NCBI RefSeq assembly: GCF_900111135.1
Contig: NZ_FOGF01000015.1
Location: forward strand, 1 to 32,000
DNA from: Granulicatella balaenopterae
Lineage (GTDB): Bacteria; Bacillota; Bacilli; Lactobacillales; Aerococcaceae
DNA: 32,000 bases
Direction: 5' to 3'
A program made the position numbers and the translations under genes. The notes beneath the pieces are model-generated. The model searched no databases. It was not told where the DNA came from and saw only the letters and a program-made list of their open reading frames with translations. Positions within the stretch are counted from its first letter, which is position 1. Every line of letters begins with the position of its first letter. This document shows positions 5,331 through 25,204 of the stretch, piece by piece.

Positions 5331-5361
5331 AATTATCCCCCCTTTTTTAGTCTAATGATGC

Positions 5362-6447: not shown

Positions 6448-6511
6448 TTTACCACCCTACTTTCTTTTATTACGATACCTCACACCTTAAATTTGGCTAT
6501 GAGTGTTCGTT

Positions 6512-8443: not shown

Positions 8444-9064
8444 TTATAAGATTGGTTCATCTTCAATCGTCTGTGCTGTATCTTCTTTTGAACGGACTAA
8501 TCCTTCTGTTGTGTCAGCGCCTTTCATCATTTCAACGAAGACGATTTGCACGCTAGTAGTCCATGAAGATGCCTGATTATCTTTTCCATCAGTACTAGCA
8601 GCAATGCTAATATCATTAATTAAACAACGATTATCCCCTGTGTATAATTGATGGATAATTCTTTTGGCTGTCGCATAATCTTCTGTTGTAAACGAAAGAG
8701 CAACGGGACGTTTGATAGCGTCTCCTGTCTGCACTGCATCTGAAAAACTAATATCAAAACTTGTTGTTTGCGTCATAATTTGGTTTAAAGCATCTACTTC
8801 CGCTTGTAAATGATTATATGGATAGACTTGACCTAGACCGGCTTCTTGATTGTCTTTTATTTCACGTTCCATATTTTTATTTTGGTCACGACGCATCTGT
8901 TCAAAAGTAAGTTCCTGCATTAATTCATCTGTTTGATATCTATCAATCATATTGTGACAAGGCTTATAACAAGCAAAATAATAAATCGAAAATACTAACA
9001 TCACTACTGCAATAATAATAATAGCTTTTTCTTTTGCTTCTAATTTCTGTTTAAATTGCATCAT
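8444..9064 (-). CDS. pilO: PilO-like bitopic alignment-complex protein
   Basis: 206 aa. Short cytoplasmic N-terminus, a single TM (AIIIIAVVMLVFSIYYFA), a coiled-coil-like stretch and then a globular domain. Its start overlaps the pilN stop (ATGA). The assignment rests on position after pilM-pilN and on topology, not on strong sequence motifs. Confidence 0.6.
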   Translation of the reverse strand: MMQFKQKLEAKEKAIIIIAVVMLVFSIYYFACYKPCHNMIDRYQTDELMQELTFEQMRRDQNKNMEREIKDNQEAGLGQVYPYNHLQAEVDALNQIMTQTTSFDISFSDAVQTGDAIKRPVALSFTTEDYATAKRIIHQLYTGDNRCLINDISIAASTDGKDNQASSWTTSVQIVFVEMMKGADTTEGLVRSKEDTAQTIEDEPIL

Positions 9065-9678
9065 GATTCTTCACCCCCAACTTTAAAAGTAATGGAGATG
9101 GTGCCATCAACTGTTGTACTATCTTCATTATGATTAGCCGTATGAACCGTTACAAAGGTGACTTCTGGATCTTCTTGTACACGCTCAACAATTGCTGCCA
9201 TCTTCTCAAGAGTTGTCTCTTTAATCACGACATCCGCATGATTGTCATTTATATCATAAGAATCGACTACCGCATCAACGGCCACTTTTCGGTCAATTAA
9301 CTCAATCATCATCAAACGATTAGGCTGTAACTTTTCTTCATCAGTTAGACAACCATTCCCATAACGATTATAGTCATCACGAATATGAGCATATTTCTTA
9401 CTATCTTCTTGCAATGTTTGAATATTGCTTTCAATGGCTTGATAATTTTCTTTAGCTAGATAGGCCTCTTCAACTAAATCCACCACAAATACTTTCCCTA
9501 AACCAAGCAGCAAGATAATCCCCAAGATAATACTCACTGTCGTAATAATAGAGACCTTCTTCTGTTCGGCAGTTACAAAGTTGATTGTTTTTTTTGATGG
9601 ATATTGATTATTACTTGTTAAATCTTTGCTCCCTAATTGCTTTAAGCGGGAAAGAAAATTCGAATCCACTTGTTTCAT
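9061..9678 (-). CDS. pilN: PilN-like bitopic protein
   Basis: 205 aa. The cytoplasmic N-terminus carries KKTINFV, resembling the PilM-binding INLLP motif. It is followed by a TM (VSIITTVSIILGIILLLGLG) and a coiled coil. It lies directly after pilM and ends with TGA. Confidence 0.7.
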   Translation of the reverse strand: MKQVDSNFLSRLKQLGSKDLTSNNQYPSKKTINFVTAEQKKVSIITTVSIILGIILLLGLGKVFVVDLVEEAYLAKENYQAIESNIQTLQEDSKKYAHIRDDYNRYGNGCLTDEEKLQPNRLMMIELIDRKVAVDAVVDSYDINDNHADVVIKETTLEKMAAIVERVQEDPEVTFVTVHTANHNEDSTTVDGTISITFKVGGEES

Positions 9679-9689: not shown

Positions 9690-10694
9690 CTATTCTAATA
9701 CCATTCCTAATAATTGCGGACATAATTCTAATTCGTCCATTGACATTACATCATTACTAAATAATTCTTTGATGGACTTGACATTAAGATCAACCGAACG
9801 AGTAATACTCTCTACTAATGGCTTAATATTCGTGCCACCTCCACAAATATAGACATTCTCTAAATCTGATCCTGCATGGTTATATAAATAGAAATTCATA
9901 ATCCGCATAATCTCAATAGCTACTTGATCATACATTGGCATTAAACGCTCATGATATTGAATATTTTGACGATTGGCTTCATAATCCAGATGTGCAATAT
10001 GAATATCTACCTCATTAATTTCCGCAGCTTGAGCAATAAAGTTATAACAACCAAATTCCATTGTTCTAGTGATATCATATTCCCCTTCAGAAAAGAATTG
10101 AATAATAATCGTCTCTGCTCCTAAATCCATCACCGCATAATCATGCTTACCAGTAATCCCATTTCGCTCTTCATAATGATCAATAATATTCTTAATCGCT
10201 AAACATTCCGGCATCAAAACGGCTAACTTCAATCCTGCACGACGAAACATTGCTTGGTAGGCTTCTAATAATTCACGCTCCACGGCAATGGCTAATAAAT
10301 CCATCTCGCCAATTTTAGGATTTTTTTCATCTTGCTGAACATCAATTACAGCATAATCATAGACATATTGATCTTTACTACCTGTTATATACATCTTAAA
10401 TTCATATGGTAAATTCACCTTCAATTGGCTAATAGTCATCAAAGGCATATTCAAACGACGTACCAATAACTTTCTATCTGGTAAAGTTAACGCCACCTTC
10501 TTACAATTAATGCGATGCTCTTTAAAAGTCTCCCTAATAAAATCAGCCATCGCATCATAAGAGACAATCTGATTATCTCGCACCATATTATCTGGTAATT
10601 CCGCTTGAATAAACTTTTGTGGCTTACCATTCACACAAATCGCTAATTCTAATGTATGATTACCAATCTCAATTCCAACTATCTTCTTAGCCAT
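9690..10694 (-). CDS. pilM: PilM, actin-like ATPase-fold pilus assembly protein (334 aa from ATG 10694)
   Basis: MAKKIVGIEIGNHTLELAI (phosphate-1 like), AVMDLGAETIIIQFF (phosphate-2 like), YICGGGTNIKPL (adenosine motif). The ORF-track start 10796 would overlap pilD by 76 nt. ATG 10694 has GAGGG upstream and lies 26 nt after the pilD stop. Confidence 0.88.
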   Translation of the reverse strand: MAKKIVGIEIGNHTLELAICVNGKPQKFIQAELPDNMVRDNQIVSYDAMADFIRETFKEHRINCKKVALTLPDRKLLVRRLNMPLMTISQLKVNLPYEFKMYITGSKDQYVYDYAVIDVQQDEKNPKIGEMDLLAIAVERELLEAYQAMFRRAGLKLAVLMPECLAIKNIIDHYEERNGITGKHDYAVMDLGAETIIIQFFSEGEYDITRTMEFGCYNFIAQAAEINEVDIHIAHLDYEANRQNIQYHERLMPMYDQVAIEIMRIMNFYLYNHAGSDLENVYICGGGTNIKPLVESITRSVDLNVKSIKELFSNDVMSMDELELCPQLLGMVLE

Positions 10695-10720
10695 CTTCAC
10701 AACCCTCTCTTCACTCAACT

Positions 10721-11560
10721 TTAAAATAAACTTAAATACCAAGTCGTCACCGAAGTACCAATTAATAATGTGATAAAGACCGCCACCGAAATACACGGCC
10801 CAAATGGAATACGATTCTTCTTAACTAATACTGAAAAAAGAATCCCCATCACACATGATAAAATTAAACAGAACAAACTCTCAAAAAGCCCCATATATAA
10901 ACCAGTCATAAAGAATAACTTAATATCTCCACCACCAAGACTTTCCTTCCCACTTAACTTATCAAAAATAATCGATAAAACTAATAACGAACCCGCAATA
11001 ATAAAGCCTCCTAATAAACCATCCGTTGCACGGCACATTAAATACTCAAGTGGTACCAGCGCTTTAGGACTTGCTAATTCACTCGGACCAATCACTCCAG
11101 CTTGTAATGGTAAAAAGACTAACCAATTCACAATCCCCCAAATAATAAAACTATCTGGAATCTCATAAATCGCCAAATCCACCAATGATAATCCCAATAA
11201 CAAACAACTTAAGACTAAATAACTAAGCGCCTGCCAAGAAATACCAAAAACAGCTACCACCGCTACAAAAGCAAGTCCTAATACCAATTCCGTCAACATA
11301 TATCTAGGATGAATCTTAATGCCACAATAACGACAGCGACCCTTCAAGAATAAATAACTAAAAATGGGCACTAAATCCTTGGCAGCTAATATATGTCCAC
11401 AACTTGTACAATGACTGCGACCACTTCTCACTGATTCATGATTCGCCATACGCCATGATAGACAATTAATAAAGCTACCAAATACTATTCCCAAAATAAA
11501 CACTACTCCATATATATACACTACCAAAAATCCATTATCTGGGAACATTTCTCCTAACAC
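10721..11560 (-). CDS. pilD: Prepilin peptidase / N-methyltransferase PilD (A24 family)
   Basis: Polytopic membrane protein with the CxxC...CxxC zinc motif (CTSCGH...CRYCG) and two catalytic Asp contexts (LVDLAIYEIPD and GGGDIKLF). The start is ambiguous: GTG 11560 or ATG 11548. Confidence 0.93.
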   Translation of the reverse strand: MLGEMFPDNGFLVVYIYGVVFILGIVFGSFINCLSWRMANHESVRSGRSHCTSCGHILAAKDLVPIFSYLFLKGRCRYCGIKIHPRYMLTELVLGLAFVAVVAVFGISWQALSYLVLSCLLLGLSLVDLAIYEIPDSFIIWGIVNWLVFLPLQAGVIGPSELASPKALVPLEYLMCRATDGLLGGFIIAGSLLVLSIIFDKLSGKESLGGGDIKLFFMTGLYMGLFESLFCLILSCVMGILFSVLVKKNRIPFGPCISVAVFITLLIGTSVTTWYLSLF

Positions 11561-11887: not shown

Positions 11888-12490
11888 CTAATCGGTTAAA
11901 GACTCCTTCAATAACTTCACATCACCTGTAGCCTGCCACCATAAATAATACTCATAATGATCCTTTTTATCTTCATGAACACTCACAAACAACAAACAAT
12001 CCCTCAAATCATACGTCTTACCCACCTTCATCTCCTCACCAATCCAAAAATCCCCTGGCACAAAATCACTTGACACCTCAGTCGATGAGACAAAGCGCGT
12101 CTGCCATGGATCTGGGGACGTTAAGGTTAATGCTTCGCCATAATTCTCAAAAGGCTCAACCCCTCTAGACTCTAAGCGAACCTTGAGAGCGGTTAATGTT
12201 TCATTTTCTTTTAAAGCATAAATACGCTTCCCTTTTGAATCCACCACAAATGCCACCTGAGCATTCTTATCAATCGCTTCCCCTAAAGAATCACTCCCTA
12301 AAGTAAAAGCCTCTCTAGCCGCATTACGGGCCGTTCTTTCATAACCTAATATAATAGTTTCAGATTGAGTGTTATCCTGCTTTACAAACTGTGGCACAAT
12401 TAATAAAATCACACAAACCACAATGATAATAATCGCTAATACAACCGGTAATGACGCACCAGACGACCTTCTATTCTCTTGAAAAATCAT
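11888..12490 (-). CDS. Membrane-anchored protein with a non-canonical (Glu5-less) pilin-like N-terminus
   Basis: AAGAGGTG lies 6 nt upstream of ATG 12490; the ORF-track GTG 12499 lies inside the RBS. N-terminus MIFQENRRSSG|ASLPVVLAIIIIVVCVILLIV has a short basic leader, a Gly and a ~20-residue hydrophobic helix but no Glu at +5. It shares G-x-(S/T)-L-P with the divergent gene 12645..13364. Confidence 0.6.
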   Translation of the reverse strand: MIFQENRRSSGASLPVVLAIIIIVVCVILLIVPQFVKQDNTQSETIILGYERTARNAAREAFTLGSDSLGEAIDKNAQVAFVVDSKGKRIYALKENETLTALKVRLESRGVEPFENYGEALTLTSPDPWQTRFVSSTEVSSDFVPGDFWIGEEMKVGKTYDLRDCLLFVSVHEDKKDHYEYYLWWQATGDVKLLKESLTD

Positions 12491-12580
12491 TGTTAACACC
12501 TCTTAAATTTCAAATATTCTTAATACTTAATATTATCATATATCACAAATTTTCACAAACTCGCAACTATTCGTCATAAA

Positions 12581-12644: not shown

Positions 12645-13364
12645 ATGCCCATGCCCCAAATAACCACTAACAAAGACAAGCGCTCATTGAAAAAGCGTTT
12701 AACCAATCAAAAAGGAGTCACATTACCACTTGCATTACTATTCTTTATTGTCTGCGCAGTCATTGGCTCTATTATCCTAGCAACAGCAACCGTAGCATCC
12801 AATCGGGTTGGTGGACTAGTCTCCCAACAACAACCCTACTACACCACCACTTCTGCTGCCAAAATGATGAAAAATATCTTAGAGGGCACCAGTTGCGAAT
12901 TGGTCTATATTAAAGAAGATGGCCAAAAAGTTAGCGAAAACATTACTTACCAAGGGGCTGATAGTCAATTACCACCCAAATTCTTAGTACAAGTAGTCGA
13001 GACTTATGAACATCTTACTTTAGGACAAGCTCTAGTCAAACAACCACTCAGCTTCAATCTAACGAGTAGCCAAAAAGAATTAAATCTAACAGAAGGTACA
13101 CTGGCACTAAGCTCCAAAGAAGACACAGCTTACGATATTCAGATGAGCTTCAAAACAGAAAATAAAAACAATGCCTACTACTGCCAATTAGTTGCGCCAT
13201 CTTCCGTTACAACAACCGAAGAATTGCTATGGTATGACGCAGCGGGTGTTCTAGTCGACAATCCAAGCGAAACTGATTTAAGCAAATGTACTAAAAAAAC
13301 AAAAATCACCACCACCATCAAATGGCCCAAAGCAACCATTCAACAAGCGGAGGTGCAAAACTAA
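12645..13364 (+). CDS. Minor pilin-like protein lacking Glu5 (GspK/PilX-like class)
   Basis: 239 aa. N-terminus MPMPQITTNKDKRSLKKRLTNQKG|VTLPLALLFFIVCAVIGSIILA has a basic leader, Gly-1 and a hydrophobic helix, with Leu instead of Glu at +5. It is the first gene of a three-gene operon with tight coupling. Confidence 0.7.
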   Translation: MPMPQITTNKDKRSLKKRLTNQKGVTLPLALLFFIVCAVIGSIILATATVASNRVGGLVSQQQPYYTTTSAAKMMKNILEGTSCELVYIKEDGQKVSENITYQGADSQLPPKFLVQVVETYEHLTLGQALVKQPLSFNLTSSQKELNLTEGTLALSSKEDTAYDIQMSFKTENKNNAYYCQLVAPSSVTTTEELLWYDAAGVLVDNPSETDLSKCTKKTKITTTIKWPKATIQQAEVQN

Positions 13365-13840
13365 TGACAAAAGAACTGACAAAACAAACTGGTGAGGTAC
13401 AATTTGATAAGAGGCAAGTACAAGATGTGCAATCTAATAAAGCGCAAATACAGGATGTGCAGTTTTTGAAAAATTCCGAATTAAAAGAGAATTCAGACGA
13501 CACACAGCGCAACCTCTATTTCACAGCAAAAGACAAACTAGCTAGCCAAAAAGGAGAATCAATCGCCGAAGCACTAATCGCCCTACTAATCGTGGCATTA
13601 GGTATCGTACTACTAGCAATCATGATTAGCGCCTCAACCCGCATCGTCAAAAAAAGTAATGAGCGACTAGAAGCCATGTATCAAGTAACCAATCAATTAG
13701 AAGAACAAACAGTCCCTCCTACTACTAATTCACTAACAATCGACCTTAGTGGTAGCACAAAGACTATCCAAGTGAATCAACACAGCGTAGAAGATAACAT
13801 GTATCAATTCAACTTATACTCATATGAAATGAACGAATAA
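13364..13840 (+). CDS. Minor pilin with an unusually long (64-aa) leader and a small mature domain
   Basis: GGAGGTG lies 8 nt upstream of ATG 13364, which overlaps the preceding stop (TAATG). The ORF-track start 13322 is an extension. The class III motif ASQKG|ESIAEALIALLIVALGIVLLAIMI (Glu at +5) begins only at residue 64-65. The leader contains VQFDKRQVQDVQSNKAQIQDVQF. Confidence 0.7.
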   Translation: MTKELTKQTGEVQFDKRQVQDVQSNKAQIQDVQFLKNSELKENSDDTQRNLYFTAKDKLASQKGESIAEALIALLIVALGIVLLAIMISASTRIVKKSNERLEAMYQVTNQLEEQTVPPTTNSLTIDLSGSTKTIQVNQHSVEDNMYQFNLYSYEMNE

Positions 13841-13869
13841 GCCAAAATAAGAGTAAAGGCAGATGACTT

Positions 13870-14400
13870 ATGAAAAAAAGAATCAAGCACAAACTACAAT
13901 CGACTAAAGGTTTCTCATTAGGTGAACTCCTGCTAACGATTTTAATCATCAGTTTAGCAGGAGTGGCCATGACAGGTGGATTTACCGTGGTGCATCACTC
14001 ATACAAAAAAATCACCCAGCAAGCCAATGCCGAAACCCTACTATCAACAACCATCAATAAATTCAATAATTACGTACGCTATGGCGAAGAGATCACTAGT
14101 AACAGTCCTACCAGTATCACCTTTATTGACCCAACTAATGGCATAAAAACAACCATTACAAACGGTAGTGATAGCACTGGAACTGGTGGCGCAAGCGTAA
14201 ATAACACAGGACTAATTATCAGCTACACAGGCGGATCACACCAACTATTAGCAGATAGCGCAATGAATGATGGCCTAGTTCCAGAAATTACAAACATTAA
14301 CAAAAACGGCCAAACCGTCAACTACACCATCACCATTAAAAACAATAAAGGTAACGAAATCACCAAACAAGCAGTCACCACCAGACTACTGAATGAATAA
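13870..14400 (+). CDS. Minor pilin (canonical class III signal)
   Basis: 176 aa. N-terminus MKKRIKHKLQSTKG|FSLGELLLTILIISLAGVAMTGGF has Phe+1 and Glu+5. It is the last gene of the plus-strand operon. Confidence 0.8.
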   Translation: MKKRIKHKLQSTKGFSLGELLLTILIISLAGVAMTGGFTVVHHSYKKITQQANAETLLSTTINKFNNYVRYGEEITSNSPTSITFIDPTNGIKTTITNGSDSTGTGGASVNNTGLIISYTGGSHQLLADSAMNDGLVPEITNINKNGQTVNYTITIKNNKGNEITKQAVTTRLLNE

Positions 14401-14600: not shown

Positions 14601-14778
14601 GTGGGAAAAAGACTAAGTGACAAACGCAAATGAAAAGCCCTACCTAAAATGTAACGCCTTCCCCACGCCGTTTTTCAGCGAAAACAAAAAGACGCTAGCA
14701 AGGATCATTCCCTACTAACGCCTCTATTAATTGCATCATAACGCCCAATGCAAAATCTAATCACATAATGAAATCATG

Positions 14779-17700
14779 CTAATGTTCTAATTTTGATACT
14801 GCTTCATGTGAAGAAGTCGCCTCACCTGAACTTGATTCTTGCGAGCTTGACGCTTCATTCGAATGAACTGTTTGTGATTTGGCACTTGATTCTTCATTCA
14901 GATTTTCTTCAGGCTTCGTTGGTTCACTTGGCTTTTGAGAAGAACTATCAGAATCTGCCTCAGCTGGTGCAATTGGTTTATTATTTGGCTTATTAACTGA
15001 ATGATTGTCTTCTTCATGTATTGGCTCTGTTGTAGAGTCTTCTACTGAGCGAGAATCAGATGACGAAGCATCGTCTACTTCTTCCAATAAAGAATTTGGC
15101 TGAACTAGTAATACACTTCTAGCTCCTCGTATTTGACTAGCATCAAAGCGAACTGTCAATGTTGCTACTACTTTTTTATTTGAAGGATTGTATTCATAAT
15201 CAACATCAATAGCTTTACTATCAATAGGATGTCCATCAACCGTAATATGATCTACAACAGACTGATCAAAAGTATAATCCCCAATTGGTTTAATTGTACA
15301 AGTCGTTATATTGCCAGCTTGCGTCTTATTAATCTTGAACTGCACATTCTTTAAAGGTGTATGATCTGGGAAATACCTAACATTAGTAATCGTATTCCCT
15401 GCTTTATTAAGATTAAATCCATCAATTGGTTTCAAGAAAATATTATTAGTAAATAATTCTTTTTTCAAGACATTATCATAAACACTAGCTACAGTTGGTT
15501 TTACCACATCATTTTCATGATAGACACTTATAAACGCTCCAAACGCACGAACATAGCGCGCAAATAATTCAAATGTATCATAGGAATTACCTTTATCATT
15601 ATAATTAATCCAACCTTTATGGTATTTCTTAGCTATTGTACCAAAATTACAATTAAATTCTTGATTTAAGTCATTTAGATTTAAACGTAAGCGAGTATTC
15701 CATGCAATATTATCAACAATATCAACAAAATACCCAATATTCTTTAATTCTTTAGTCTGTAATGAACCATTATTATCAAAGTAAGCAACTTTCATTCCTG
15801 ATAAATAGACTTTATTACGTCCCATCTCAATGGCTTCTTTAAAGGAACTAATTGTCACATTAATATCATATACAAACACATTTTTACCATATAATTCTAG
15901 ATTATTTACATAATAATCTCCATATAATGGTAATTGTGGTAATAATGTATGATCTGGTTGTTGACTAACAAAATACCCATAAGGATAATCAACACCTTTA
16001 AGAACATCACTATATGGATAGACCATACTTTGCTTGTAATCATTCCAAGCTGGAGTACCATCAGGATTCACTACTTCTTTCATTTTTTGAACAATTTGAT
16101 GAGATGAACCAGATGTTACGCCATTACCATCTAATGTTGTTTGCGAACCTTGGTTAGCTACACTAAAGCAATCTTTTAATTTTAGATTTGTATGATTGTA
16201 AAAACTTATGTAATTATTTTTATTTCTAACAGCAGCATAATTACGTTCTACAAGAAGTGAATACTGATCATAATTAAAGTAGTTGATCGAATTAATAAAG
16301 CCTGATATTTGTTTTGCATTAACATAAGAATCACCAATCGCAAAGGAATTCTTTATTATATGCTCATTACGTGTATCTTTTGCACCATCAGAATGGACTT
16401 TTGCAAAGCCGCTAAAAGTCTCCAATTCATTTTTTATATCTGCTGTATAATTAACATAACAAGAATCAATATAACTATAATTATTCATTACAAAGCCGGC
16501 TACATCCCCTTTATGCCAACGATCAATATTCGCTGCATTAAAATTCGCTGTAACAGATGAGCGGACGATTTTGTGATTATTTTGTTGAGCAAATCCAGCT
16601 ACTTCATCTGATAATTGACCATCTGACTTCTTACCAATTGTCACTAGTAGATAAAGATTACCATGCTCTCCAATTAATTCTTCAATTGCTTGTTGTGTAA
16701 CTTCTTCACGAGTGATTTTATTATTCGTTACAAATTGATATCCTTCAAAAATCGTTCCAGGGCGATACATCATACTTTGCACTAAAGCGTCATTCCCCCA
16801 TTGATAATTCGTTACATTAACATATTGTTTTAAATACTGTTCATACTTGCTACGATCACTATATAATTGACAACCTGAAATATCTCCATAGTTTTTCGTA
16901 ACAAATCCTGTTGACGCAATTTGTGAATTAACAATATCAATATCAGAAACTTCATGATTATTCACCATAACAGCACCTGGACCATCAATTGTACAGTGGA
17001 TAAGCGCTATATTGTGATGATTATTAGAATTCACTACTCCATCATTAATCGCTACTAGACCTGCTTCTGTGATATGACTATTTTTAACAAATGGATTCGT
17101 TATCGTACCAACATTTTTAAAGATAAAGCCATTTTTAGCGATTGTTGGGCAGTCGGTTACTTGAGCATTTGTTATTGTTGCATGGTCATTCCAACTAGCA
17201 AAGCCATTGCCACTAATACTTGGTGATGTCGCAAAACCATAACCGATTTTATGAACGAAACTATCTATAATCTGAGCATTTGGTTGATTACTAAAGACAA
17301 AGCCATCTCCATTAATTTTTGTGGTAATATGACCTGTTGCTTCAACCGAACTAGCAGAGATAATTTTCTGATTATAGGTTACAAAGCCTGCATTACTTGC
17401 CCCACTAGTCCCAATAATTGGACAATCAATGACGTGAGAATTGTCAATAATTCCTCCATTAGTAAAGATAAAACCACTATTAGAAATACTTATATCATTC
17501 GGATTAGCATAACCAATTCGTTCAACTTTACTAGCAGAAATCTTACCAATCCATGAATTAATATTAGCAAAACCATCCCCAAATATTTGAGTCGGTTGTG
17601 TACCATTAGATGTCACCGAACAACTAGTAATCTCACCATTATTTGTGAATACAAATCCAGCATTTGTAGTACCATCTTTCCCGATAGCTGGGCAGTCGAC

Positions 17701-20700
17701 TACTTGAGACTGGTTAATTGGTCCATTATTGGTAAATACTAATCCGGCTGCTTGTACAATACTTGTTCTAACCGCCATCAGATTATTGATTGTTCCTTTT
17801 CTGGCGTCTGTAGCAAATGTAGCTACTTCTTTTGTTTTAAAGACAGCTAACTTGTTCTCTGTTTGATTATTAGAAATAAATGGTAAATCAGCAAATTTTT
17901 GAAACTCTTTTTCCACCATGAAAGTGGTCATTTCTGGCATACTTCTTGGCGTAATTGTTTGATGATTAATGGTTGAATTCTCTACTGTACATCCAGCAAT
18001 GGAACCACCATTATGACTAGTATGAACCAATCCCCCAACCGTTGAAGCTACATCTGTTTGAAGGTGAGTCACGTTACAATTGGTTACAGAACTTTGCGAT
18101 TGACCGATTAATCCACCCACACAGAGGGCATTCGTTACTTGACTCATCATAACATCTGACACTGTAGAATGCGTTACAACAATGGATGCTTGTCCAATCA
18201 GCCCTCCTAGATATAATTGACCTGTAGATTGGATATTATTCATTGTTGTATTCGCTACCGAGCAACCACTGACATTACTTAATGTTTGCCCACTTAATCC
18301 ACCGACATACGTGGCCGTAATATTATCCATTGTGATATCAGACACCGTATTATCTGAAATAGTACCCGCATTGGTTAATCCGACCAAGCCACCGACATAT
18401 ATAGCATTAGTTGGATTTTCTATGCGAATATTAGACACCCTACAACGAGCAATCTCACTACCACTTGAATGTCCAACCAAGCCACCAATATGAGCTCCAT
18501 CTGCAAACTTAGTAGTAAAGTTTGATGCCTGACAGTTCGTGATTGTACCACTATTTATATTTGCAATGGCATTATATAAATGTACTTCTTGTGTGCCAAG
18601 ACAGTCAATCTCAACCGAGTCAATAATACCCGCACTAGCATTGGCTACACGACGAACTTTGGCGGCAGCTTGCTCATTTGGTGTTAATTGATATTCAAAA
18701 TTAAAATTACTTATTTTACCAGTATTGTTATCAGCGTAAGTTTGTTTATCTAATCCTTTAATCCAATAATGGTCTGCTTTATTTGTTGAAGTACTTACCG
18801 ATCCACTATGCGAACCATCAATGACACAAGCGACAGTTTTTAATAGTGAACTTTCAGTATAATTATAATCTCGTAAACCAAAATCAACATCTAACATTTG
18901 GTGAATCGTAACATCTTTGTTAGCCATTACTGCTCTATCTTGATGTGATACTTGCTGCATGGCTTCATATTGGTTTAAAGACCTTACTTCAAATTCTGTA
19001 CCAAGATTTGGTGACTCTGATTCTCCAACTACTTGTGCTGTATGTGCCAAGTATGGTATGTATCCGTATTTAGCGCTAAAGGTTCCATTTGATTCAATGG
19101 TTACTGTTAAACTATTTGGATTACTTGTTAATAATGGATATATCGTATCTTTAAACCAATTACTGTGATAAGTATTTTTGGCACTAGGCATTCCATCCAA
19201 GTGGTATAGTTGATACTCTTCAGTAATGTTCAGAGCTTTCTTAACGCCAGCGCTCAAATTCGTATTTGCAATAGCTCCTAAATTCGTATCAAAGGCTTGT
19301 TTACCTGTTAATGTCGTACTATTATCAAATGTTATTGTTACTTGATCAAGATTCCCAATTAAGACTAAAGCGTAGCCACTATCCACTAAGTATTTACCTG
19401 GTGTTGTATCAAATGCTACATTCTGCGTTAAAGTCGTTCCATCCCAAGAGTACGTTTGTTTTTCGGTTGGGTTGTCTTTATCAAAGTTGCCTTCAAAGTA
19501 ATATGTTTGATTGTCAAAAGTTTCATAATAGACTAAGCTTGTTTCGCATGTTATATCAGGAATTGGCCAGTCACCGTAATGCGTCTCGTCAATGACTGGG
19601 CGCAATGGGAAGGTTCCTGTTTGCTGGCTTGGATCTTTTAAGTCTTCATCATATGGATGTGCTGTATATGTTTTTTTAGCGCCGATTATATCGGTACTTG
19701 CTTTTGTGGCAATTGTTGCATCTTTATCATTGCCGACGATTTGTACTTCTGAAGAATTGATGCCTGATAAGACATAATTATTCTTATTAAGAGAGCTGAC
19801 ATTTTGGTCGACTTTACCAATGAATGTTCCAGCGTTATCATTGCTCTTATTAGCTTTAACCAAACCAGTCGCATAAGAATTGTCTACCTGGATGTTTTTA
19901 GCTTGTCCAATCAATCCACCAATATTTTGTTGACCATTTCCAGTTGCACTAACCGAAGCAGTTGTATAACAATTATTAATAGCTACTACTTGCGGACTAT
20001 TAACTGTCCCAATGAAGCCGCCAATATTCGTTGTTTTACCATTGGTTACATTTGCAGTAATATTACTTGCCGTCTCAGCATACTTCCCACCATTTATTGT
20101 ACGGCCAGCAACATAACAATTTTCGATTAAACTATCTTGCTGTGTCTGAATAATTTGTCCGATTAAGCCACCTGCAAAGGATTCAATTCCTGAACTATCT
20201 GATTGCTTAGCTTCGATGGTAACTAATGCATTAGAATAACTATCTTTAACCGTTAACTTTCCAGCACTAACTGCTCCGACTAATCCACCTACTGCAGGAT
20301 GTGTACCAGTTACTGTGACTGTCATATTCTTACCTTTTACAAAGGAGTCTTCAATAGTCAGATTATTTTCACCACTAACTAAGCCAACCATTCCACCTGC
20401 TACGCTATGTTTAGCCGCTTGTGCTTTGGTTGTTATATATGACTCTTGGCTTGTTTTTGTGTCATCTGCTTCTACAGAAGAATACTTAATCTCTAGGGAG
20501 CCACTTGTTTTAGCAACGAATCCTCCAGAAGTTTCTTGCCCGTTAATACTTGGATTTTTTAGTTGTAGATTTGACATTAATAATGAGCTATCCAATGTTA
20601 ATTCTCCAAACATCCCGGCATTTGCTTGATCTGTAATCGTTAAATTTTTGATTTGGAATTTGTTCCCATTATATGACGTTAAATGATTATTCGTAATGCT

Positions 20701-22008
20701 ATAGTAGCTATCTTGTGTAGCTGGCGTACCATCTGCTTTATAAATTGTAAACGATGAATCACTTTCCTTAGCTACTGCTTCAAATATGCGATAATCTAGT
20801 TGCTCGTCTTGTTCAAAGCTAGTCATATCAAGCCCCATTCCCTCAGCACACTCAACTTGTGTACTTGCCAATTGACTCGCATCCGTAATCGCATCTTCCG
20901 CCATACCAGAAATTGTTGGATCAAGATTTTCTAAGTGACGAATAGAAGAAACATTAGCCATTATAATAGTATTGCCATCCTTATCAGTGGTTGTTGTGAC
21001 TGAATGAAATAAACTATTCGTCGTTACTGGTTTTGTTTTAACAATTGGGGTTAATACCTCTTTACCAACTGCTTTCACAGTAATGGTAATATCTTCTCCC
21101 GGTGTGAAACCATCTTTTTTTCCAGTAGCTGTTTCAGCAAAAAGTTGTGCAAAATGCTTATCTTTTATCGTAATATCATCTAATATTACCGTATAAATTT
21201 TTTTACCCTGTTCTTTTTTTGCATTTTTTTCGTTTAGAGGAATTATCTTTTTAGCATGACTTGTTTCGCCTGTTACTTCGAGGCTAATATTGGTCTTAAT
21301 CTTATTAGTATCAGTTACCTTTACAATTAATTTATCACCATTTAATACATTAATAGTTGGTGTGTCTATTTTTTCTACTGGTGCCCCACTAACAGCACTT
21401 CCCCCATAATAACCAAGTGGGAATTTTTTACCACTTTTCTTTTGAGCTTTCATACGATCTTTAGGACTGCCACGATAGCCATCTCCCGGAAGAAAGCGCC
21501 CAGTCTCATCAGTTGCTGTTAACTCGTTTTCTTGGCCTTTTTCCGTATAAAACACAGCATAAACACTCGCATTTTTTACATTATATTCAATAATATACGA
21601 GCCTGCTTCACGTGCAACACCGTCAATTGCCCCCATCGGCAACATCTCTTTTAAAATCGTATTATCTAAAGTATCCTTATTAGCTGGACTATAGACAAGA
21701 TAATAATAATCACCTTCATGCCAATCCGCATCATCCATGTCATATGGCTTAGATGGCAGTTGTTCGCCTAAAGTAGTCGTATCTAATTCTGCTAATTCAC
21801 CATTTGCTTCCGCATAAGTTAAGTGGTTTTGTGCAGCAATATATATTTCTTTTGCTGTTTGATCCATCTCTAATTGCTTTAGGTGCTTATAATATCCGCC
21901 AACACCAACCACTGTAATGGCACACAAAATCCCAACGATTGCGATAACTGTCAATAATTCTGCCAATGAATATCCTTTCTTGCGTCTATTGCTATCAAAT
22001 ATCTTCAT
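14779..22008 (-). CDS. Giant (2,409 aa) modular type IV pilin / pilus-associated adhesin with GLUG-like beta-helix repeat blocks
   Basis: GGAGG lies 5 nt upstream of ATG 22008; the ORF-track start 22032 is an extension. N-terminus MKIFDSNRRKKG|YSLAELLTVIAIVGILCAITVVGV is a class III signal with Glu+5. The single uninterrupted ORF contains repeated xGG(L/F)(I/V)Gx motifs (VGGLVGA, AGGLIGQ, IGGFIGT, IGGLIGQ, VGGLVGL, VGGLSGQ, LGGLIGQ, VGGLIGQ) spaced roughly 25-50 residues apart. A second repeat series has (A/N)GF(V/I)FxN motifs. The C-terminal ~100 aa are acidic and Ser-rich. There is no LPXTG and no other TM segment. Confidence 0.85.
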   Translation of the reverse strand: MKIFDSNRRKKGYSLAELLTVIAIVGILCAITVVGVGGYYKHLKQLEMDQTAKEIYIAAQNHLTYAEANGELAELDTTTLGEQLPSKPYDMDDADWHEGDYYYLVYSPANKDTLDNTILKEMLPMGAIDGVAREAGSYIIEYNVKNASVYAVFYTEKGQENELTATDETGRFLPGDGYRGSPKDRMKAQKKSGKKFPLGYYGGSAVSGAPVEKIDTPTINVLNGDKLIVKVTDTNKIKTNISLEVTGETSHAKKIIPLNEKNAKKEQGKKIYTVILDDITIKDKHFAQLFAETATGKKDGFTPGEDITITVKAVGKEVLTPIVKTKPVTTNSLFHSVTTTTDKDGNTIIMANVSSIRHLENLDPTISGMAEDAITDASQLASTQVECAEGMGLDMTSFEQDEQLDYRIFEAVAKESDSSFTIYKADGTPATQDSYYSITNNHLTSYNGNKFQIKNLTITDQANAGMFGELTLDSSLLMSNLQLKNPSINGQETSGGFVAKTSGSLEIKYSSVEADDTKTSQESYITTKAQAAKHSVAGGMVGLVSGENNLTIEDSFVKGKNMTVTVTGTHPAVGGLVGAVSAGKLTVKDSYSNALVTIEAKQSDSSGIESFAGGLIGQIIQTQQDSLIENCYVAGRTINGGKYAETASNITANVTNGKTTNIGGFIGTVNSPQVVAINNCYTTASVSATGNGQQNIGGLIGQAKNIQVDNSYATGLVKANKSNDNAGTFIGKVDQNVSSLNKNNYVLSGINSSEVQIVGNDKDATIATKASTDIIGAKKTYTAHPYDEDLKDPSQQTGTFPLRPVIDETHYGDWPIPDITCETSLVYYETFDNQTYYFEGNFDKDNPTEKQTYSWDGTTLTQNVAFDTTPGKYLVDSGYALVLIGNLDQVTITFDNSTTLTGKQAFDTNLGAIANTNLSAGVKKALNITEEYQLYHLDGMPSAKNTYHSNWFKDTIYPLLTSNPNSLTVTIESNGTFSAKYGYIPYLAHTAQVVGESESPNLGTEFEVRSLNQYEAMQQVSHQDRAVMANKDVTIHQMLDVDFGLRDYNYTESSLLKTVACVIDGSHSGSVSTSTNKADHYWIKGLDKQTYADNNTGKISNFNFEYQLTPNEQAAAKVRRVANASAGIIDSVEIDCLGTQEVHLYNAIANINSGTITNCQASNFTTKFADGAHIGGLVGHSSGSEIARCRVSNIRIENPTNAIYVGGLVGLTNAGTISDNTVSDITMDNITATYVGGLSGQTLSNVSGCSVANTTMNNIQSTGQLYLGGLIGQASIVVTHSTVSDVMMSQVTNALCVGGLIGQSQSSVTNCNVTHLQTDVASTVGGLVHTSHNGGSIAGCTVENSTINHQTITPRSMPEMTTFMVEKEFQKFADLPFISNNQTENKLAVFKTKEVATFATDARKGTINNLMAVRTSIVQAAGLVFTNNGPINQSQVVDCPAIGKDGTTNAGFVFTNNGEITSCSVTSNGTQPTQIFGDGFANINSWIGKISASKVERIGYANPNDISISNSGFIFTNGGIIDNSHVIDCPIIGTSGASNAGFVTYNQKIISASSVEATGHITTKINGDGFVFSNQPNAQIIDSFVHKIGYGFATSPSISGNGFASWNDHATITNAQVTDCPTIAKNGFIFKNVGTITNPFVKNSHITEAGLVAINDGVVNSNNHHNIALIHCTIDGPGAVMVNNHEVSDIDIVNSQIASTGFVTKNYGDISGCQLYSDRSKYEQYLKQYVNVTNYQWGNDALVQSMMYRPGTIFEGYQFVTNNKITREEVTQQAIEELIGEHGNLYLLVTIGKKSDGQLSDEVAGFAQQNNHKIVRSSVTANFNAANIDRWHKGDVAGFVMNNYSYIDSCYVNYTADIKNELETFSGFAKVHSDGAKDTRNEHIIKNSFAIGDSYVNAKQISGFINSINYFNYDQYSLLVERNYAAVRNKNNYISFYNHTNLKLKDCFSVANQGSQTTLDGNGVTSGSSHQIVQKMKEVVNPDGTPAWNDYKQSMVYPYSDVLKGVDYPYGYFVSQQPDHTLLPQLPLYGDYYVNNLELYGKNVFVYDINVTISSFKEAIEMGRNKVYLSGMKVAYFDNNGSLQTKELKNIGYFVDIVDNIAWNTRLRLNLNDLNQEFNCNFGTIAKKYHKGWINYNDKGNSYDTFELFARYVRAFGAFISVYHENDVVKPTVASVYDNVLKKELFTNNIFLKPIDGFNLNKAGNTITNVRYFPDHTPLKNVQFKINKTQAGNITTCTIKPIGDYTFDQSVVDHITVDGHPIDSKAIDVDYEYNPSNKKVVATLTVRFDASQIRGARSVLLVQPNSLLEEVDDASSSDSRSVEDSTTEPIHEEDNHSVNKPNNKPIAPAEADSDSSSQKPSEPTKPEENLNEESSAKSQTVHSNEASSSQESSSGEATSSHEAVSKLEH

Positions 22009-22079
22009 AACTTCCTCCATACTAATCCCCATCTATTTTTAACGCTATTATGCGCATTCTAATTAATATACTCACTAAA

Positions 22080-22088
22080 ATTATACCA
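22080..22088 (-). promoter_or_regulatory. Extended -10 element TGGTATAAT upstream of the giant pilin gene
   Basis: Minus strand reads tttgtgTGGTATAATtttagtg about 70 nt upstream of ATG 22008. The same 9-mer occurs at 995..1003 and 1739..1747. Confidence 0.5.
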
Positions 22089-22197
22089 CACAAAAAGCGT
22101 TATTTCTTGTGAAACTAAGCATTCCAATAAGGAAAATAAAAAGAATGCCCCCAATCCGCTTCACGGTTAGCACATTATGAAAGTCTATTCACTTCCT

Positions 22198-22238
22198 AAA
22201 AAAAGAAACCACATCAGCTATTTTAGCCGAGTGATTTC
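22198..22238 (-). terminator. Rho-independent terminator after the CWB-repeat peptidase gene
   Basis: Minus-strand RNA GAAAUCACUCGGC-UAAAAUA-GCUGAUGUGGUUUC forms a ~13-bp stem with one bulge and G-U pairs, followed by UUUUUUU. Confidence 0.65.
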
Positions 22239-22303
22239 TAAACTTGTCTTTTCTCTATTGCTTATCTATTGTTAGAAGCTATTTAGTTAACATGCGGTAG
22301 TCT

Positions 22304-24079
22304 TTATTTGATGATAATTGCCATTTTACCACGCATTTGATAGGCTTTTGCTACTTTATGACTACTTACCCAATAATGTCCTGAGATTGAATCTGCGCAA
22401 TAAAAGGAATCATCCTTAAATCCAGCTAAAACAATTGCGTGTCCATTCGATGGTTCAGGCCCAAACCAATAATAATTCATAGTTGGATAACTAAATTTGG
22501 GCGTTGTGCCCCAGACAATTACGGGATTCCCTTTAACGATTTCTTCTTTCATCTGATCAAGTGTATATCCTGTTGCGTCCATGGCTTCGGGAGCATATTG
22601 TTGTGCTAATGGCAATAGTGCCTTTGGATAGACTGTTGCGATTGATGAGACGTTATAATAAGGATTACCGACATAGCCATTGTGTGGATTTCCATTAGGG
22701 GATTTTTTCACTTCTTTGGTTAGTTGATAGGCTGTTTTGTCTTTGGCATAGCCTTTATAATGCAAGGCTTGTGTCAAGGCATATACCTCGCATGAATTAA
22801 CTGCTTGGGGATATTGATGATAGACGGGTACATCGAGTGTTACTTTTTTGCGATATAATCCTGTATCATCGACATAATATTTGCCGATTGATTTATTTTT
22901 GGCCATTCTACCAGAATTTTCTAAATAATAACTTCCTATCCATCTATTGCTTTCTAAGTAGCCACCATCTTTAAAGTAATACCAATCTGTTCCTACTTGC
23001 ACCCAGCCTTTATTAATTTTTTTGCCATTTGCATCTACATAATTCCAATTACCATCTTTTTGTTGATAGAGCCATTCGTTTTTAGCCATATAACCCCATT
23101 GTTTTAGATAGTAATCACCAACCCATTTGTTTTGAACGTAGGTACCGTCTGGATTAAAGTAATGCCAACCTGTTTCGGGACTCCACGCCCATTCCTGTTT
23201 GGCCATTTCGCCCCATTTTTTTAGATAGTATGAGCCTTTCCATGTATAACGAGCATATGAGCCATCTTCTTTAATATAGAACCAGTTTTCATAGTCTTTA
23301 TCATAAATCCATTCGTTTTTAGCCATATAGCCCCATTGTTTAATGTAGTAAGCACCGACCCATTTGTTTTGAACATAGGTACCGTCTGGATTAAAGTAGT
23401 GCCAACCTGTCTCGGGACTTTTTGCCCATTCCTGTTTGGCCATTTGTCCATTTTCTTTTAGGTAATATGATCCCTTCCATGTATTGGTGATATATTTGCC
23501 ATCATTGCCGAAATAATACCACTGCTCTTGTTGAGTGTGTACCCATTGATTTTGGAGACGTTTGCCATCTTTATCGACATAGTATTCATCTACTATCGCA
23601 TCTCTGACTAACTCAGCATTTTCGTTAAAGTAATACCAATCATTTGTGGCTTTATCTTTTAGCCATTCTGATTGTCGTAAAAATGCTGTCTTAGTATCCG
23701 CATAATAGCGCTCTTGTCCAATTTGAATCCAGCCTGTTTGAACAATTCCTTCTTGATTCGTATAAATCATCTGCTGTGAATCAGGGATTGTATAGAAACC
23801 AATTACTTTTTCACCAGTTTCTAAAAAATAATATAGTTTGTTGTCAATTTTTACAAAGCCTTGTTGTTGCTTTTGGGGTATTGAAGCGCCATCTTCTATT
23901 GGTGTGGTGTCCTCTATTGGCTTGGTATTGTCTGTTGGTGTGGTGTTATCTATTGGTGTGGTGTCCTCTACCGCTTTAATAGTAATTGGTGTGGTATTGT
24001 TTTGTTCTGTCGCCATTACTGTTGGAGTAGCTAGCCATAATAGCGTACCAATTGTGGCTACATAAGAAAATTTTTTCAT
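22304..24079 (-). CDS. Secreted protein: TP-rich spacer, choline/cell-wall-binding repeats, C-terminal YvpB/C39-like cysteine peptidase
   Basis: 591 aa. Signal peptide MKKFSYVATIGTLLWLATPTVMA. (D/E)xT(T/K)P(I/T) hexapeptide repeats. About 12 CW_binding_1-type repeats (GWxxxxxxWYYFxxDGxxxxxxW pattern, e.g. TGWHYFNPDGTYVQNKW and GWVQVGTDWYYFKDGGYLESNRW). The C-terminal domain LDVPVYHQYPQAVNSCEVYALTQALHYKGY...NGHAIVLAGF matches my memory of the B. subtilis YvpB / Peptidase_C39_2 pattern, with a Cys in xxCE(V) and a downstream His. Confidence 0.85.
   Translation of the reverse strand: MKKFSYVATIGTLLWLATPTVMATEQNNTTPITIKAVEDTTPIDNTTPTDNTKPIEDTTPIEDGASIPQKQQQGFVKIDNKLYYFLETGEKVIGFYTIPDSQQMIYTNQEGIVQTGWIQIGQERYYADTKTAFLRQSEWLKDKATNDWYYFNENAELVRDAIVDEYYVDKDGKRLQNQWVHTQQEQWYYFGNDGKYITNTWKGSYYLKENGQMAKQEWAKSPETGWHYFNPDGTYVQNKWVGAYYIKQWGYMAKNEWIYDKDYENWFYIKEDGSYARYTWKGSYYLKKWGEMAKQEWAWSPETGWHYFNPDGTYVQNKWVGDYYLKQWGYMAKNEWLYQQKDGNWNYVDANGKKINKGWVQVGTDWYYFKDGGYLESNRWIGSYYLENSGRMAKNKSIGKYYVDDTGLYRKKVTLDVPVYHQYPQAVNSCEVYALTQALHYKGYAKDKTAYQLTKEVKKSPNGNPHNGYVGNPYYNVSSIATVYPKALLPLAQQYAPEAMDATGYTLDQMKEEIVKGNPVIVWGTTPKFSYPTMNYYWFGPEPSNGHAIVLAGFKDDSFYCADSISGHYWVSSHKVAKAYQMRGKMAIIIK
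23006..23479 (-). repeat. Tandem ~237-bp (79-aa) duplication within the cell-wall-binding repeat region
   Basis: Residues 201-279 (WKGSYYLKENGQMAKQEWAKSPETGWHYFNPDGTYVQNKWVGAYYIKQWGYMAKNEW...) and 280-358 (WKGSYYLKKWGEMAKQEWAWSPETGWHYFNPDGTYVQNKWVGDYYLKQWGYMAKNEW...) are near-identical over the first ~57 residues. Confidence 0.8.
23896..23967 (-). repeat. 4 x 18-bp in-frame tandem repeat encoding the TP-rich spacer
   Basis: Plus-strand units are ctattggtgtggtgtcct, ctattggcttggtattgt, ctgttggtgtggtgttat and ctattggtgtggtgtcct. The first and fourth are identical. Confidence 0.8.
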
Positions 24080-24363
24080 TTTTTCCTCCTATCTTTTTTA
24101 TCGCTCAAAAATTTGTCCAACTTCCTCTTTATGTGTCACTCATTAACTAAAATGAGTCTCAACATGAATCATCCAGTCAAATCCTTTACTTATATATTAC
24201 ATTATTCAGATTTCTTTGTGAAATATTTTGTTGATTATTTGCGTTATTTTTTATTTTTTTAGACAATAATCAGAATAGTTTCTCTTTTTACCCTTATCTT
24301 TACTAGGAATCATCCCGCTTTGCTTGATTTGCCTTTTTGATGTTGATGTCGTGGTTTGTGAAT

Positions 24364-24402
24364 AAAAAAGAAACCACATGAGCTATTTAGTCACGTGGTT
24401 TC
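24364..24402 (-). terminator. Rho-independent terminator after the CAMP-factor gene
   Basis: 12-bp stem gaaaccacatga / tcacgtggtttc (one position is a G-U pair on the minus-strand RNA) with a 9-nt loop, followed by UUUUUU on the minus strand. The left arm and loop are nearly identical to the terminator at 22198..22238. Confidence 0.7.
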
Positions 24403-24448
24403 TCAAATCTTATGAATGCTATTTGTCAAAAAGTCTCATTATTTTTCG

Positions 24449-25204
24449 TTATTGTTGTAATGCAAATTCCATTGCGTCTTGTAACATCAAAACAGCATTA
24501 TCAACATCTTGCACAGTTGTTGTTCTTCTTAATTGGATGCCAACTGCTTTTGTAATCACTTTATTTAGGTTATTATAGGTTTTAAAATTTTTCACCCCAA
24601 GAATTTTTTGATCGCGTTCAAATCTTGTATTCCAAATAGCTTTTCTTAGTTTTGCTTTGGCATAGACTGTTGCGCGGCTATTTGGGTCAAGGTCTGCATA
24701 ATTCACTAATTTTTCTTTTAAATCGTTAACTACAGCTACTTGATTCTTGATTGATTCTACACTTGAGAATGGGTCTGCAATGCGGATAACTAGTTTTGTA
24801 ATGGCGAATCCCATTTCACGGTGAGCTGCTTCAACTTTGCCGCTTAGTTCATTTGATGCGAAGTTAATAGCATCAATTACATCTGCTAGTGCTTCAATTC
24901 TTGCACCTAGGCTATCTAAGTCATAGATTGTTTCAGGATTGAACTTCAATGTTGGGTCTGTTTCGTTTTGTACTTTTAATTTTTCCAAAGCCGCAATTGC
25001 ACTATTTGTCATATTTTCATATTGTGTTCCCTTAACTGCATCTTTAAGTTCAGCTAACTTCTGAGCATCTTCAGTAATCTTCGCTTCAAGATTTTGGTCA
25101 TTCACATATACTGGTTCACTGGCTTGTACATTCACTGCCATGACGGGTGCAATGCTTGATACTAACATTGTAGAAGCTAATACAATAATAATTTTTTTCT
25201 TCAT
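24449..25204 (-). CDS. cfb: CAMP-factor family secreted pore-forming co-haemolysin homologue
   Basis: 251 aa with signal peptide MKKKIIIVLASTMLVSSIAPVMAVNVQA. Long colinear matches to my memory of Streptococcus agalactiae CAMP factor: GTQYENMTNSAIAALEKLK, NPETIYDLDSLGARIEALADVIDAINF, MGFAITKLVIRIADPFSSVESIKNQV, RATVYAKAKLRKAIWNTRFERDQKILGVKNFKTYNNLNKVITKAVGIQL. The length is also the same (~250 aa). Confidence 0.85.
   Translation of the reverse strand: MKKKIIIVLASTMLVSSIAPVMAVNVQASEPVYVNDQNLEAKITEDAQKLAELKDAVKGTQYENMTNSAIAALEKLKVQNETDPTLKFNPETIYDLDSLGARIEALADVIDAINFASNELSGKVEAAHREMGFAITKLVIRIADPFSSVESIKNQVAVVNDLKEKLVNYADLDPNSRATVYAKAKLRKAIWNTRFERDQKILGVKNFKTYNNLNKVITKAVGIQLRRTTTVQDVDNAVLMLQDAMEFALQQ

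Follow-up and report, generated by a model that had tools for sequence, protein, structure and literature searches.

Modular pilins combine an N-terminal pilin signature with a domain that is not specific to type IV pili (T4P); they assemble through the pilin module and have been modelled at the pilus tip (PMC8179133). A global survey counted about 1,200 of them, the largest number of additional domains being that of an 860-residue protein in which one motif occurs 12 times, and its dataset lists, without discussion, 6 proteins with an N_methyl-GLUG architecture (IPR012902-IPR011493) (PMC8179133). An earlier census of Gram-positive pilins took only proteins under 350 amino acids (aa), a limit that may be part of the reason why giant pilins were missed. 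At the pilus tip, the HIJK minor pilins are capped by PilY1 (PMC10191384). Here, we analysed a stretch of 32,000 nucleotides from Granulicatella balaenopterae (contig NZ_FOGF01000015.1, positions 1 to 32,000; hereafter, the window), in which a gene for a 2,409-residue protein sits at one end of a complete T4P locus. This giant protein has both components of the modular-pilin definition, an N-terminal methylation motif and GLUG repeats (PF07581). We consider it probable that it is a modular minor pilin, processed by the prepilin peptidase PilD, which takes part in the tip or priming complex and exposes a fibre with an effector function, probably that of an adhesin.

The open reading frame (ORF) concerned runs uninterrupted from 22032 to 14779 on the minus strand and counts 2,417 aa from its first ATG. 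The ATG at 22008, which yields 2,409 residues, is the likely start because it is preceded by a GGAGGA ribosome-binding site (RBS) with a 4-nt spacer, and because the resulting 12-residue leader has the same length as those of the two closest homologues (P0002 and P0003), which end in KKG/YTLAE (the slash marks the cleavage point). A previous reading of this DNA, made from the sequence only, had described one 7.2-kb ORF with a strong RBS, without giving its strand, and a size of about 260 kDa; both descriptions hold. The identical protein (100%) of G. balaenopterae is labelled by NCBI as a 'prepilin-type N-terminal cleavage/methylation domain-containing protein'.

A frame of this length could in principle be an artefact, either because translation starts downstream of the class III motif or because a pilin gene of about 830 codons has been fused to an unrelated gene, as a chimera or a pseudogene. 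GLUG repeats apart, the C-terminal 1,570 residues indeed lack homologues; the base form of the family stops close to residue 830, and in one metagenomic relative (L089) the frame is broken by a stop after codon 444. However, at the local base composition a run of 2,409 codons would be free of stops with a probability of about 1e-83, the RBS lies directly before ATG 22008, the homologues align from residue 1, and single ORFs just as long encode more than 100 relatives of 1,300-4,000 aa. DNA 100% identical to the window is found in GCA_054054285.1, an NCBI assembly, and independently in a Logan assembly of the run SRR4235419, and the assembly chimera that the sequence-only reading had named as a risk is therefore unlikely. 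The motif that ends the second beta-helix region also echoes the end of the first (see below), and GC content is uniform. We regard an artefact of annotation or assembly as very improbable. Horizontal acquisition of the giant gene alone is likewise unsupported, as its GC content (0.31-0.38 along the gene) stays inside the range of the window.

The protein begins with the leader MKIFDSNRRKKG, followed after the predicted cleavage point by YSLAELLTVIAIVGILCAITVVGV, exactly as first read, and all the elements of a class III signal are present: a short basic leader, Gly-1, Tyr+1, Glu+5 and a hydrophobic alpha1N. The NCBIfam model TIGR02532 scores 17.2 bits, above its cut-off of 16.3. Residues 11-41 form the sole hydrophobic segment; there is no second transmembrane (TM) helix, no C-terminal TM helix and no LPXTG-like motif, and Pfam finds no cell-wall-binding repeats in the whole protein or in its segments. 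The absence of these three types of anchor had already been stated, and on these grounds a sortase-anchored (LPXTG) or choline-binding wall protein was rejected. The gene encoding PilD, said to be about 3 kb away, lies 3.2 kb from the 3' end of the giant gene, and the locus also encodes PilT, as had been reported.

An AlphaFold2 (AF2) model of residues 1-840, based on a 40-sequence alignment, has a pLDDT of 80 and a pTM of 0.69 (83 and 0.78 for the pilin head alone). It predicts a 54-residue alpha1 helix (residues 15-68), followed by a small alpha/beta head extending to about residue 210. With the profile of the pilin module, the PDB matches are type IV pilins only, through alpha1N, and a sequence search with the whole protein matched only the alpha1 helices of geopilins. 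Beyond the head, the model shows an immunoglobulin (Ig)-like domain and a first beta-helix unit, the modelled helix covering residues 397-800. GLUG is found by Pfam with an E-value of 6e-15 in 5 stretches of the protein; six GLUG cores lie in this first unit (residues 495-701), near the end of which H810, G812, D813 and W814 are invariant across the family. The best structural matches of residues ~220-800 are the streptococcal and Gemella IgA1 metalloproteases (7uvl, 7uvk and 6xja; Foldseek E 3e-4 to 8e-3), which also carry Pfam GLUG. Unlike these enzymes, the giant protein has neither a Peptidase_M26 match nor an HExxH motif; the GLUG beta-helix alone is in common, and an IgA1-specific metalloprotease (M26, ZmpA-like) was therefore rejected. 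In IgA1 proteases, the anchor is an LPXTG motif or a signal peptide and not a pilin module.

The remainder of the protein is specific to its lineage. After an orphan region, a second, expanded and diverged beta-helix region contains six GLUG cores at 1175-1329, which are followed by about 11 degenerate coils of the form xG[FL]hx (1421-1870, spacing 23-33), and is closed by YPYSD...LPLYGDYYV (near 2000-2035). The echo of the end motif of unit 1 points to a duplication within one gene. A homologue search with residues 841-2300, 1,460 in number, returned 11 weak matches, all through GLUG repeats, and Pfam, run on five separate segments of the protein at E<=5, found nothing besides GLUG. The description of the protein as 'repeat-built' needs correction: self-BLAST detects no large internal repeats, and repetition takes the form of beta-helix coils, with 12 GLUG cores in two blocks and the degenerate coils.

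We searched for relatives of the conserved N-terminal part. Using residues 1-840 as the phmmer query against 1.84 billion cluster representatives, 2,312 relatives were found at E<=1e-3 and 714 at E<=1e-30, with lengths of ~640 to 4,060 aa. Those at the stricter threshold measure ~730 to >4,000 aa, and G/FTLAE opens nearly all of them. A word-indexed search returned 119 homologues, all very large (1,356-4,021 aa), which align to residues 1 to ~830 only and from residue 1 in both partners. The motif G/F(Y)TLAE occurs in 78 of 120 proteins; in most of the others, position -1 is Ala or the gene call is truncated. In a GTDB scan with one genome per species, 136 relatives were found and 80 loci kept; 76 of these have the class III motif. 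The loci belong to Lachnospiraceae (Oribacterium, Roseburia, Butyrivibrio, Blautia), Oscillospiraceae/Ruminococcaceae, Anaerovoracaceae, Erysipelotrichaceae and Eggerthellaceae/Coriobacteriaceae. Whether comparable giant pilins are catalogued had been left open: they are abundant in sequence databases, under generic names only.

The 71 complete ORFs of the GTDB loci have a median length of 841 aa and a bimodal distribution, with a base form of ~725-870 aa (head, Ig-like domain and a single GLUG helix) and giants that measure from 1,300 to >3,500 aa. The part that defines the family is the first ~830 residues, comprising the pilin head, the Ig-like domain and the GLUG beta-helix, whereas the distal modules of other members include Flg_new, Big_2 and SpaA-type Ig, which are typical of stalks or adhesins, as well as DUF7601/DUF5979 and even CHAP. 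The family is therefore a conserved carrier with a hypervariable distal part. In two metagenomic members, P0004 (2,905 aa) and P0007 (2,880 aa), CHAP, a peptidoglycan amidase/peptidase domain, lies a long way from the N-terminus. The CHAP domain of P0004 occupies residues 2578-2652 (E 6e-10) of a protein that also passes the N_methyl model, and a member of this type would carry a cell-wall hydrolase on the pilus. In the relative closest by sequence (L089 351-3296, metagenome contig ERZ27276636; 57% identity over residues 1-947 and 66% over the first 441), codon 444 is followed by an in-frame TGA, beyond which the frame continues; a pseudogene, an error of sequencing or a switch could account for it.

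The base form bears on a second explanation, according to which the protein is a priming or plug subunit that contributes little to adhesion: the ~830-residue part would start assembly, or open or cross the peptidoglycan, and the C-terminus would be accessory. Conservation of just head, Ig-like domain and GLUG helix across phyla argues for such a machine-related role; some members carry the CHAP peptidoglycan-hydrolase domain, and how T4P pass through monoderm peptidoglycan is an open question (PMC6916266). However, no enzymatic domain is detected in the giant protein (no HExxH, and only GLUG by Pfam), and hypervariable C-termini with stalk-type Ig/repeat modules are the mark of ligand-facing proteins. 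We judge this explanation distinctly improbable; a priming or plug role is, besides, compatible with an adhesin and does not exclude it.

The genomic context of the relatives supports a modular pilin working with the T4P machinery. All five homologue contigs that we looked up place the gene inside T4P clusters. In three of these (L001, L003 and L004), the big gene directly follows three small genes with the signals G/AS...(no Glu+5), G/E[ST]I.E and G/F[ST]L.E; in L005, these small genes lie elsewhere in the same T4P cluster. These correspond to GspK-like (K-like), PilV/GspI-like (I-like) and J-like minor pilins. Using the window proteins as tblastn queries against the 80 GTDB loci, we found a K-like homologue in 58, on the strand of the big pilin and upstream of it (typical distance, 1.5-2.5 kb), a J-like homologue in 44 and an I-like homologue in 36, and core pil genes in 29 of the 52 loci longer than 15 kb. 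The set usually lies within a pilBTC/pilDMNO cluster. The conserved order in relatives is K-like (no Glu+5), I-like, J-like, big pilin, and in most of them the four genes are co-directional and contiguous. In the window, by contrast, the K-, I- and J-like genes (12645-14400, plus strand) converge on the giant gene (minus strand), a layout shared with L006, the closest relative (45% identity). The inversion of the big gene, which uncouples its transcription, is specific to this lineage (Granulicatella and L006).

One metagenomic T4P cluster (L001) encodes other large proteins: a gene of at least 5,535 aa (1-8089) lies directly upstream of its K-I-J-giant set, and a 1,062-aa gene with a Sec-type signal (19741-22929) follows pilC. 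This kind of locus therefore holds further very large proteins.

To which pilin class the head belongs was addressed by an NCBIfam scan of 21 pilin modules from the family. The matches, all below the family cut-offs, were PpdA-like in 21 of 21, ComGD in 17, GspH in 15 (best E 9e-8), GspI in 6 and GspJ in 2, which weakly suggests that the module most resembles the H class (GspH/ComGD/PpdA). For the four-gene set as a whole, the matches to the GspK, PilV/GspI and GspH models are all far below the family cut-offs. As in the H-class pilins GspH, FimU, ComGD and PpdA, its best though sub-threshold matches, the giant protein is the fourth of a four-gene set, the other three appearing K-, I- and J-like. 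The H-class pilins differ by their size of ~150-190 aa without extension, and no family cut-off is reached by the giant's module.

Among described systems, the closest in principle are PilB (vWA) and PilC (lectin) of Streptococcus sanguinis, in which a class III signal and a small pilin module likewise bear a module that is foreign to T4P, and which work with a monoderm type IVa pilus (T4aP) machine comprising PilD, a PilB-type ATPase, PilC, PilMNO and PilT. Tip display and adhesion have been shown for S. sanguinis PilB (PMC8179133) and are proposed here. In contrast to the two S. sanguinis proteins, of ~50 kDa, the giant protein is of 260 kDa, carries Ig, GLUG beta-helices and orphan domains in place of vWA or lectin, is unrelated to them in sequence, and is partnered by the K/I/J-like set and not by PilA. 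Pilin modules with extra domains are also known in Thermus ComZ (beta-solenoid), CofB of enterotoxigenic Escherichia coli and Vibrio TcpB (beta-repeat and beta-sandwich) and GspK (alpha-domain), which are located at the tip and have roles in initiation and in ligand or DNA binding (PMC8179133). However, the extra domains of ComZ and GspK are inserted in the pilin fold and not appended to it, and none of the four has GLUG beta-helices. The sizes of ComZ, CofB, TcpB and GspK are ~350-550 aa.

The PilY1/PilC tip adhesin of diderm T4aP, with its HIJK core minor pilins (FimU-PilVWX), offers a second parallel. It too is a large effector encoded with core minor pilins, a variable effector on a conserved carrier. 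PilY1 is presented by the HIJK complex at the pilus tip, and the same presentation is proposed for the giant protein. However, PilY1 is not a pilin and its carrier is a C-terminal beta-propeller, whereas the carrier of the giant protein is an N-terminal pilin module. A PilY1/PilC protein proper was rejected, as Pfam finds no beta-propeller or PilY1 domain in the whole protein or its segments and the N-terminus is of class III. That the giant protein could replace a PilY1-type tip adhesin, as the sequence-only reading had suggested, is nevertheless reasonable, its gene adjoining the K/I/J-like set where pilY1 stands in diderm operons.

In the literature searched, we found no description of this family, of giant pilins in general, or of a modular pilin partnered with a K/I/J-like set; the 'large pilin locus' of C. 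perfringens was considered as a report of a giant pilin and set aside, the term meaning a large locus and not a large protein. The modular-pilin principle is known from S. sanguinis PilB/PilC. What is new, relative to that literature, is the scale, the conserved carrier of ~800 aa, the breadth of the family and the place in an HIJK-like set.

The assignment as a giant modular pilin of this T4P locus, first made by the sequence-only reading, is supported by (i) the signal conserved in homologues, (ii) the AF2 helix and head, (iii) GLUG and (iv) the T4P-cluster contexts. The protein is intact and very large, and its family is wide and tightly linked to the K/I/J-like set and the T4P machinery. 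We infer PilD cleavage, tip location and adhesin function, and propose the following sequence of events, with published models as a basis (PMC8179133, PMC10191384, PMC6916266). According to general pilin biology, the class III signal would insert the preprotein into the membrane, and Sec would export the ~2,370 residues beyond alpha1N in unfolded form; PilD would then cut after Gly12 and methylate Tyr+1. As the conserved synteny suggests, the H-class-like module may dock through alpha1 with the GspK-, GspI- and J-like pilins, forming a priming complex on the PilC/PilMNO platform. PilB would polymerise the major pilins below this complex, bringing it to the distal tip. The rest of the protein would be a narrow rod and not a globule, made of the Ig-like domain, the GLUG beta-helix, ~1,570 lineage-specific residues with two more beta-helix blocks, and the acidic Ser-rich tail, and it would extend outwards from the pilus tip as a fibrous effector, an adhesin being the most likely kind. 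Retraction by PilT would pull on whatever this fibre has bound. In sum, the protein may unite an H-type core minor pilin and a PilY1-like tip effector in one chain, the ~830-residue part acting as the carrier and the variable C-terminus giving specificity. A beta-helix/Ig rod would be far narrower than a globular mass of 260 kDa, which would ease the crossing of the wall but not solve it.

Several observations weigh against this proposal. The Pfam N_methyl model (PF07963) reaches 20.2 in the giant protein for a gathering score of 21.2 and is 1 bit short; family homologues such as P0004 and P0058 pass it. The sub-threshold H-class matches run largely through alpha1, and a Foldseek comparison of the pilin head with solved structures gave no significant match and no solved pilin. 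The protein has no recognisable ligand-binding domain, and its C-terminal ~1,570 residues are without informative homologues. Terminator-like sites lie on both sides of the giant gene, which therefore looks monocistronic; with its inversion relative to the K-I-J genes, co-expression is not guaranteed. Lastly, a 1,340-aa paralogue encoded directly downstream of the giant pilin in L005 (14224-18246) has a plain N-terminal TM helix without Gly-1 or Glu+5 and retains the conserved ELD..A.QIFV.AQN.L motif, and in P0108 and P0070, too, a plain TM helix takes the place of the class III signal. To judge from these sequences, members can apparently lose the prepilin signal, and the family scaffold can apparently work as a simple membrane-anchored protein.

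Paralogues that keep the conserved scaffold behind a plain TM helix would fit a protein that never enters the filament: the class III N-terminus, cleaved or not, would be a membrane anchor only, and the giant protein a free-standing, wall-spanning surface fibril merely co-evolving with the T4P locus. That the giant gene is here a separate, convergent transcription unit with its own terminator agrees with this explanation, and a rod-like beta-helix/Ig build of ~260 kDa could reach through a Gram-positive wall unaided. However, a plain anchor would not need Gly-1, the aromatic +1 and Glu+5, which are strictly conserved in 76 of the 80 loci, and the tight synteny with the K/I/J-like pilins would be difficult to account for if the four proteins did not act jointly. 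Moreover, published modular pilins with bulky modules do occur in purified pili (PMC8179133). We hold a pilin-anchored surface fibril, the main alternative, to be unlikely, and retain the modular minor pilin displayed at the tip as the probable reading.

Starting from this tip-displayed minor pilin, a wider proposal is possible but doubtful: in the Clostridia-type T4P of Bacillota and Coriobacteriia, an H-class core minor pilin may have become a universal carrier of ~800 aa, made of pilin head, Ig-like domain and GLUG beta-helix, that took over the role of PilY1, with effectors of up to >3,000 residues, including CHAP. Such pili would be retractable 'harpoons' delivering fibrous adhesins or enzymes to cells or substrates.

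The features of the giant gene and of the T4P locus are collected in Table 1.

Table 1. Features of the giant prepilin gene and of the surrounding type IV pilus locus (positions in the window; a slash marks the cleavage point of a signal).
Feature	Position	Strand	Remarks
Giant prepilin gene	14779..22008	-	2,409 aa; mature 2,397 aa, 260 kDa, pI 5.1
Leader peptide, residues 1-12 (MKIFDSNRRKKG)	21973..22008	-	Predicted PilD cleavage after Gly12; read from sequence
Pilin module, residues 13-215	21364..21972	-	Tyr+1, Glu+5, hydrophobic alpha1N; TIGR02532 passes; AF2
Ig/fibronectin type III (FN3)-like beta-sandwich, about residues 218-353	20950..21357	-	AF2 strands mostly pLDDT 85-96; Foldseek FN3 matches
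Beta-helix unit 1, about residues 397-817	19558..20820	-	Pfam GLUG, AF2 beta-helix; ends in HYGDWP
Orphan region, about residues 841-1155 (~315 residues)	18544..19488	-	No homologues; Pfam only GLUG at C-terminal edge
Expanded, diverged beta-helix region, about residues 1156-2035	15904..18543	-	GLUG cores and degenerate coils
C-terminal domains, about residues 2036-2290 (~255)	15139..15903	-	No Pfam match or homologues
Acidic Ser/Glu-rich low-complexity tail, last 104 residues	14782..15093	-	25% Ser, 16% Glu
Terminator-like hairpin	14688..14725	-	17-bp stem, 54 nt past the giant gene's stop codon
Second terminator-like site	22230..22214	-	Between the giant gene and the upstream choline-binding gene
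Five tandem major-type pilin genes	3523-4038, 2929-3438, 1849-2334, 1145-1663, 96-992	-	
pilC	4122-5330	-	Pfam T2SSF
pilT	5362-6447	-	Pfam T2SSE
pilB	6512-8215	-	Pfam T2SSE and MshEN
pilO	8444-9064	-	Pfam T2SSM listed for the assembly-machinery set
pilN	9061-9678	-	Assigned by position and tblastn to other loci
pilM	9690-10796	-	Pfam PilM_2
Prepilin peptidase pilD	10721-11560	-	A24_N_bact 9e-29 and Peptidase_A24
203-aa pilin-like membrane protein	11888..12499	-	Signal G/ASLPVVLA, without Glu+5
GspK-like minor pilin, 239 aa	12645..13364	+	Signal G/VTLPLALL, without Glu+5; weak NCBIfam GspK match
PilV/GspI-like minor pilin	13322..13840	+	Signal G/ESIAEAL
Third minor pilin, called J-like, 176 aa	13870..14400	+	Signal G/FSLGELL

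A counterpart of the 203-aa pilin-like protein (202 aa) adjoins the minor-pilin set in the closest relative, L006. As delimited mechanically, the ORF of the I-like pilin (13322-13840) includes a 75-residue leader overlapping the preceding gene; the NCBI product (L087) has 158 aa, and the true start probably lies downstream of 13322. Two of the tandem pilin genes depart from the others. The paralogue at 1849-2334 has Leu for Gly at -1 (MKTFMSKHL/FTIFE), its C-terminal half being otherwise close to that of the pilin at 2929-3438, and is probably a non-cleavable or decaying copy. The 298-aa pilin at 96-992 combines a normal class III signal and a major-pilin-like head with a C-terminal extension of ~130 residues, which makes it a candidate for a second, modest-sized modular pilin of the locus. 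Directly upstream of the giant gene (22304-25204, minus strand), two virulence-type surface or secreted proteins are encoded. One, of 591 aa, combines choline-binding repeats with a domain resembling Peptidase_C39; the other is a homologue of CAMP factor (E 5e-65).

How simple T4P acquire many functions is currently explained by modular pilins, and the characterised examples are of ~50 kDa. The 860-residue protein of the global survey is the largest pilin described in the literature searched; the locus analysed here extends the principle to 260 kDa, and its relatives to >4,000 residues. These giant pilins are not oddities: they form a conserved family, abundant in gut and rumen bacteria and tied to the K/I/J-like set. 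If they are displayed at the tip, it becomes testable in monoderms (i) whether minor pilins prime and cap the filament, (ii) how the pilus and its cargo cross the peptidoglycan and (iii) how retraction copes with a very large tip. Were the harpoon proposal true, there would be a so far unknown way of threading a tip of at least 260 kDa through a Gram-positive wall. The family also provides many candidate adhesins for colonisers of the gut and rumen, such as Oribacterium, Roseburia, Butyrivibrio and Ruminococcaceae.

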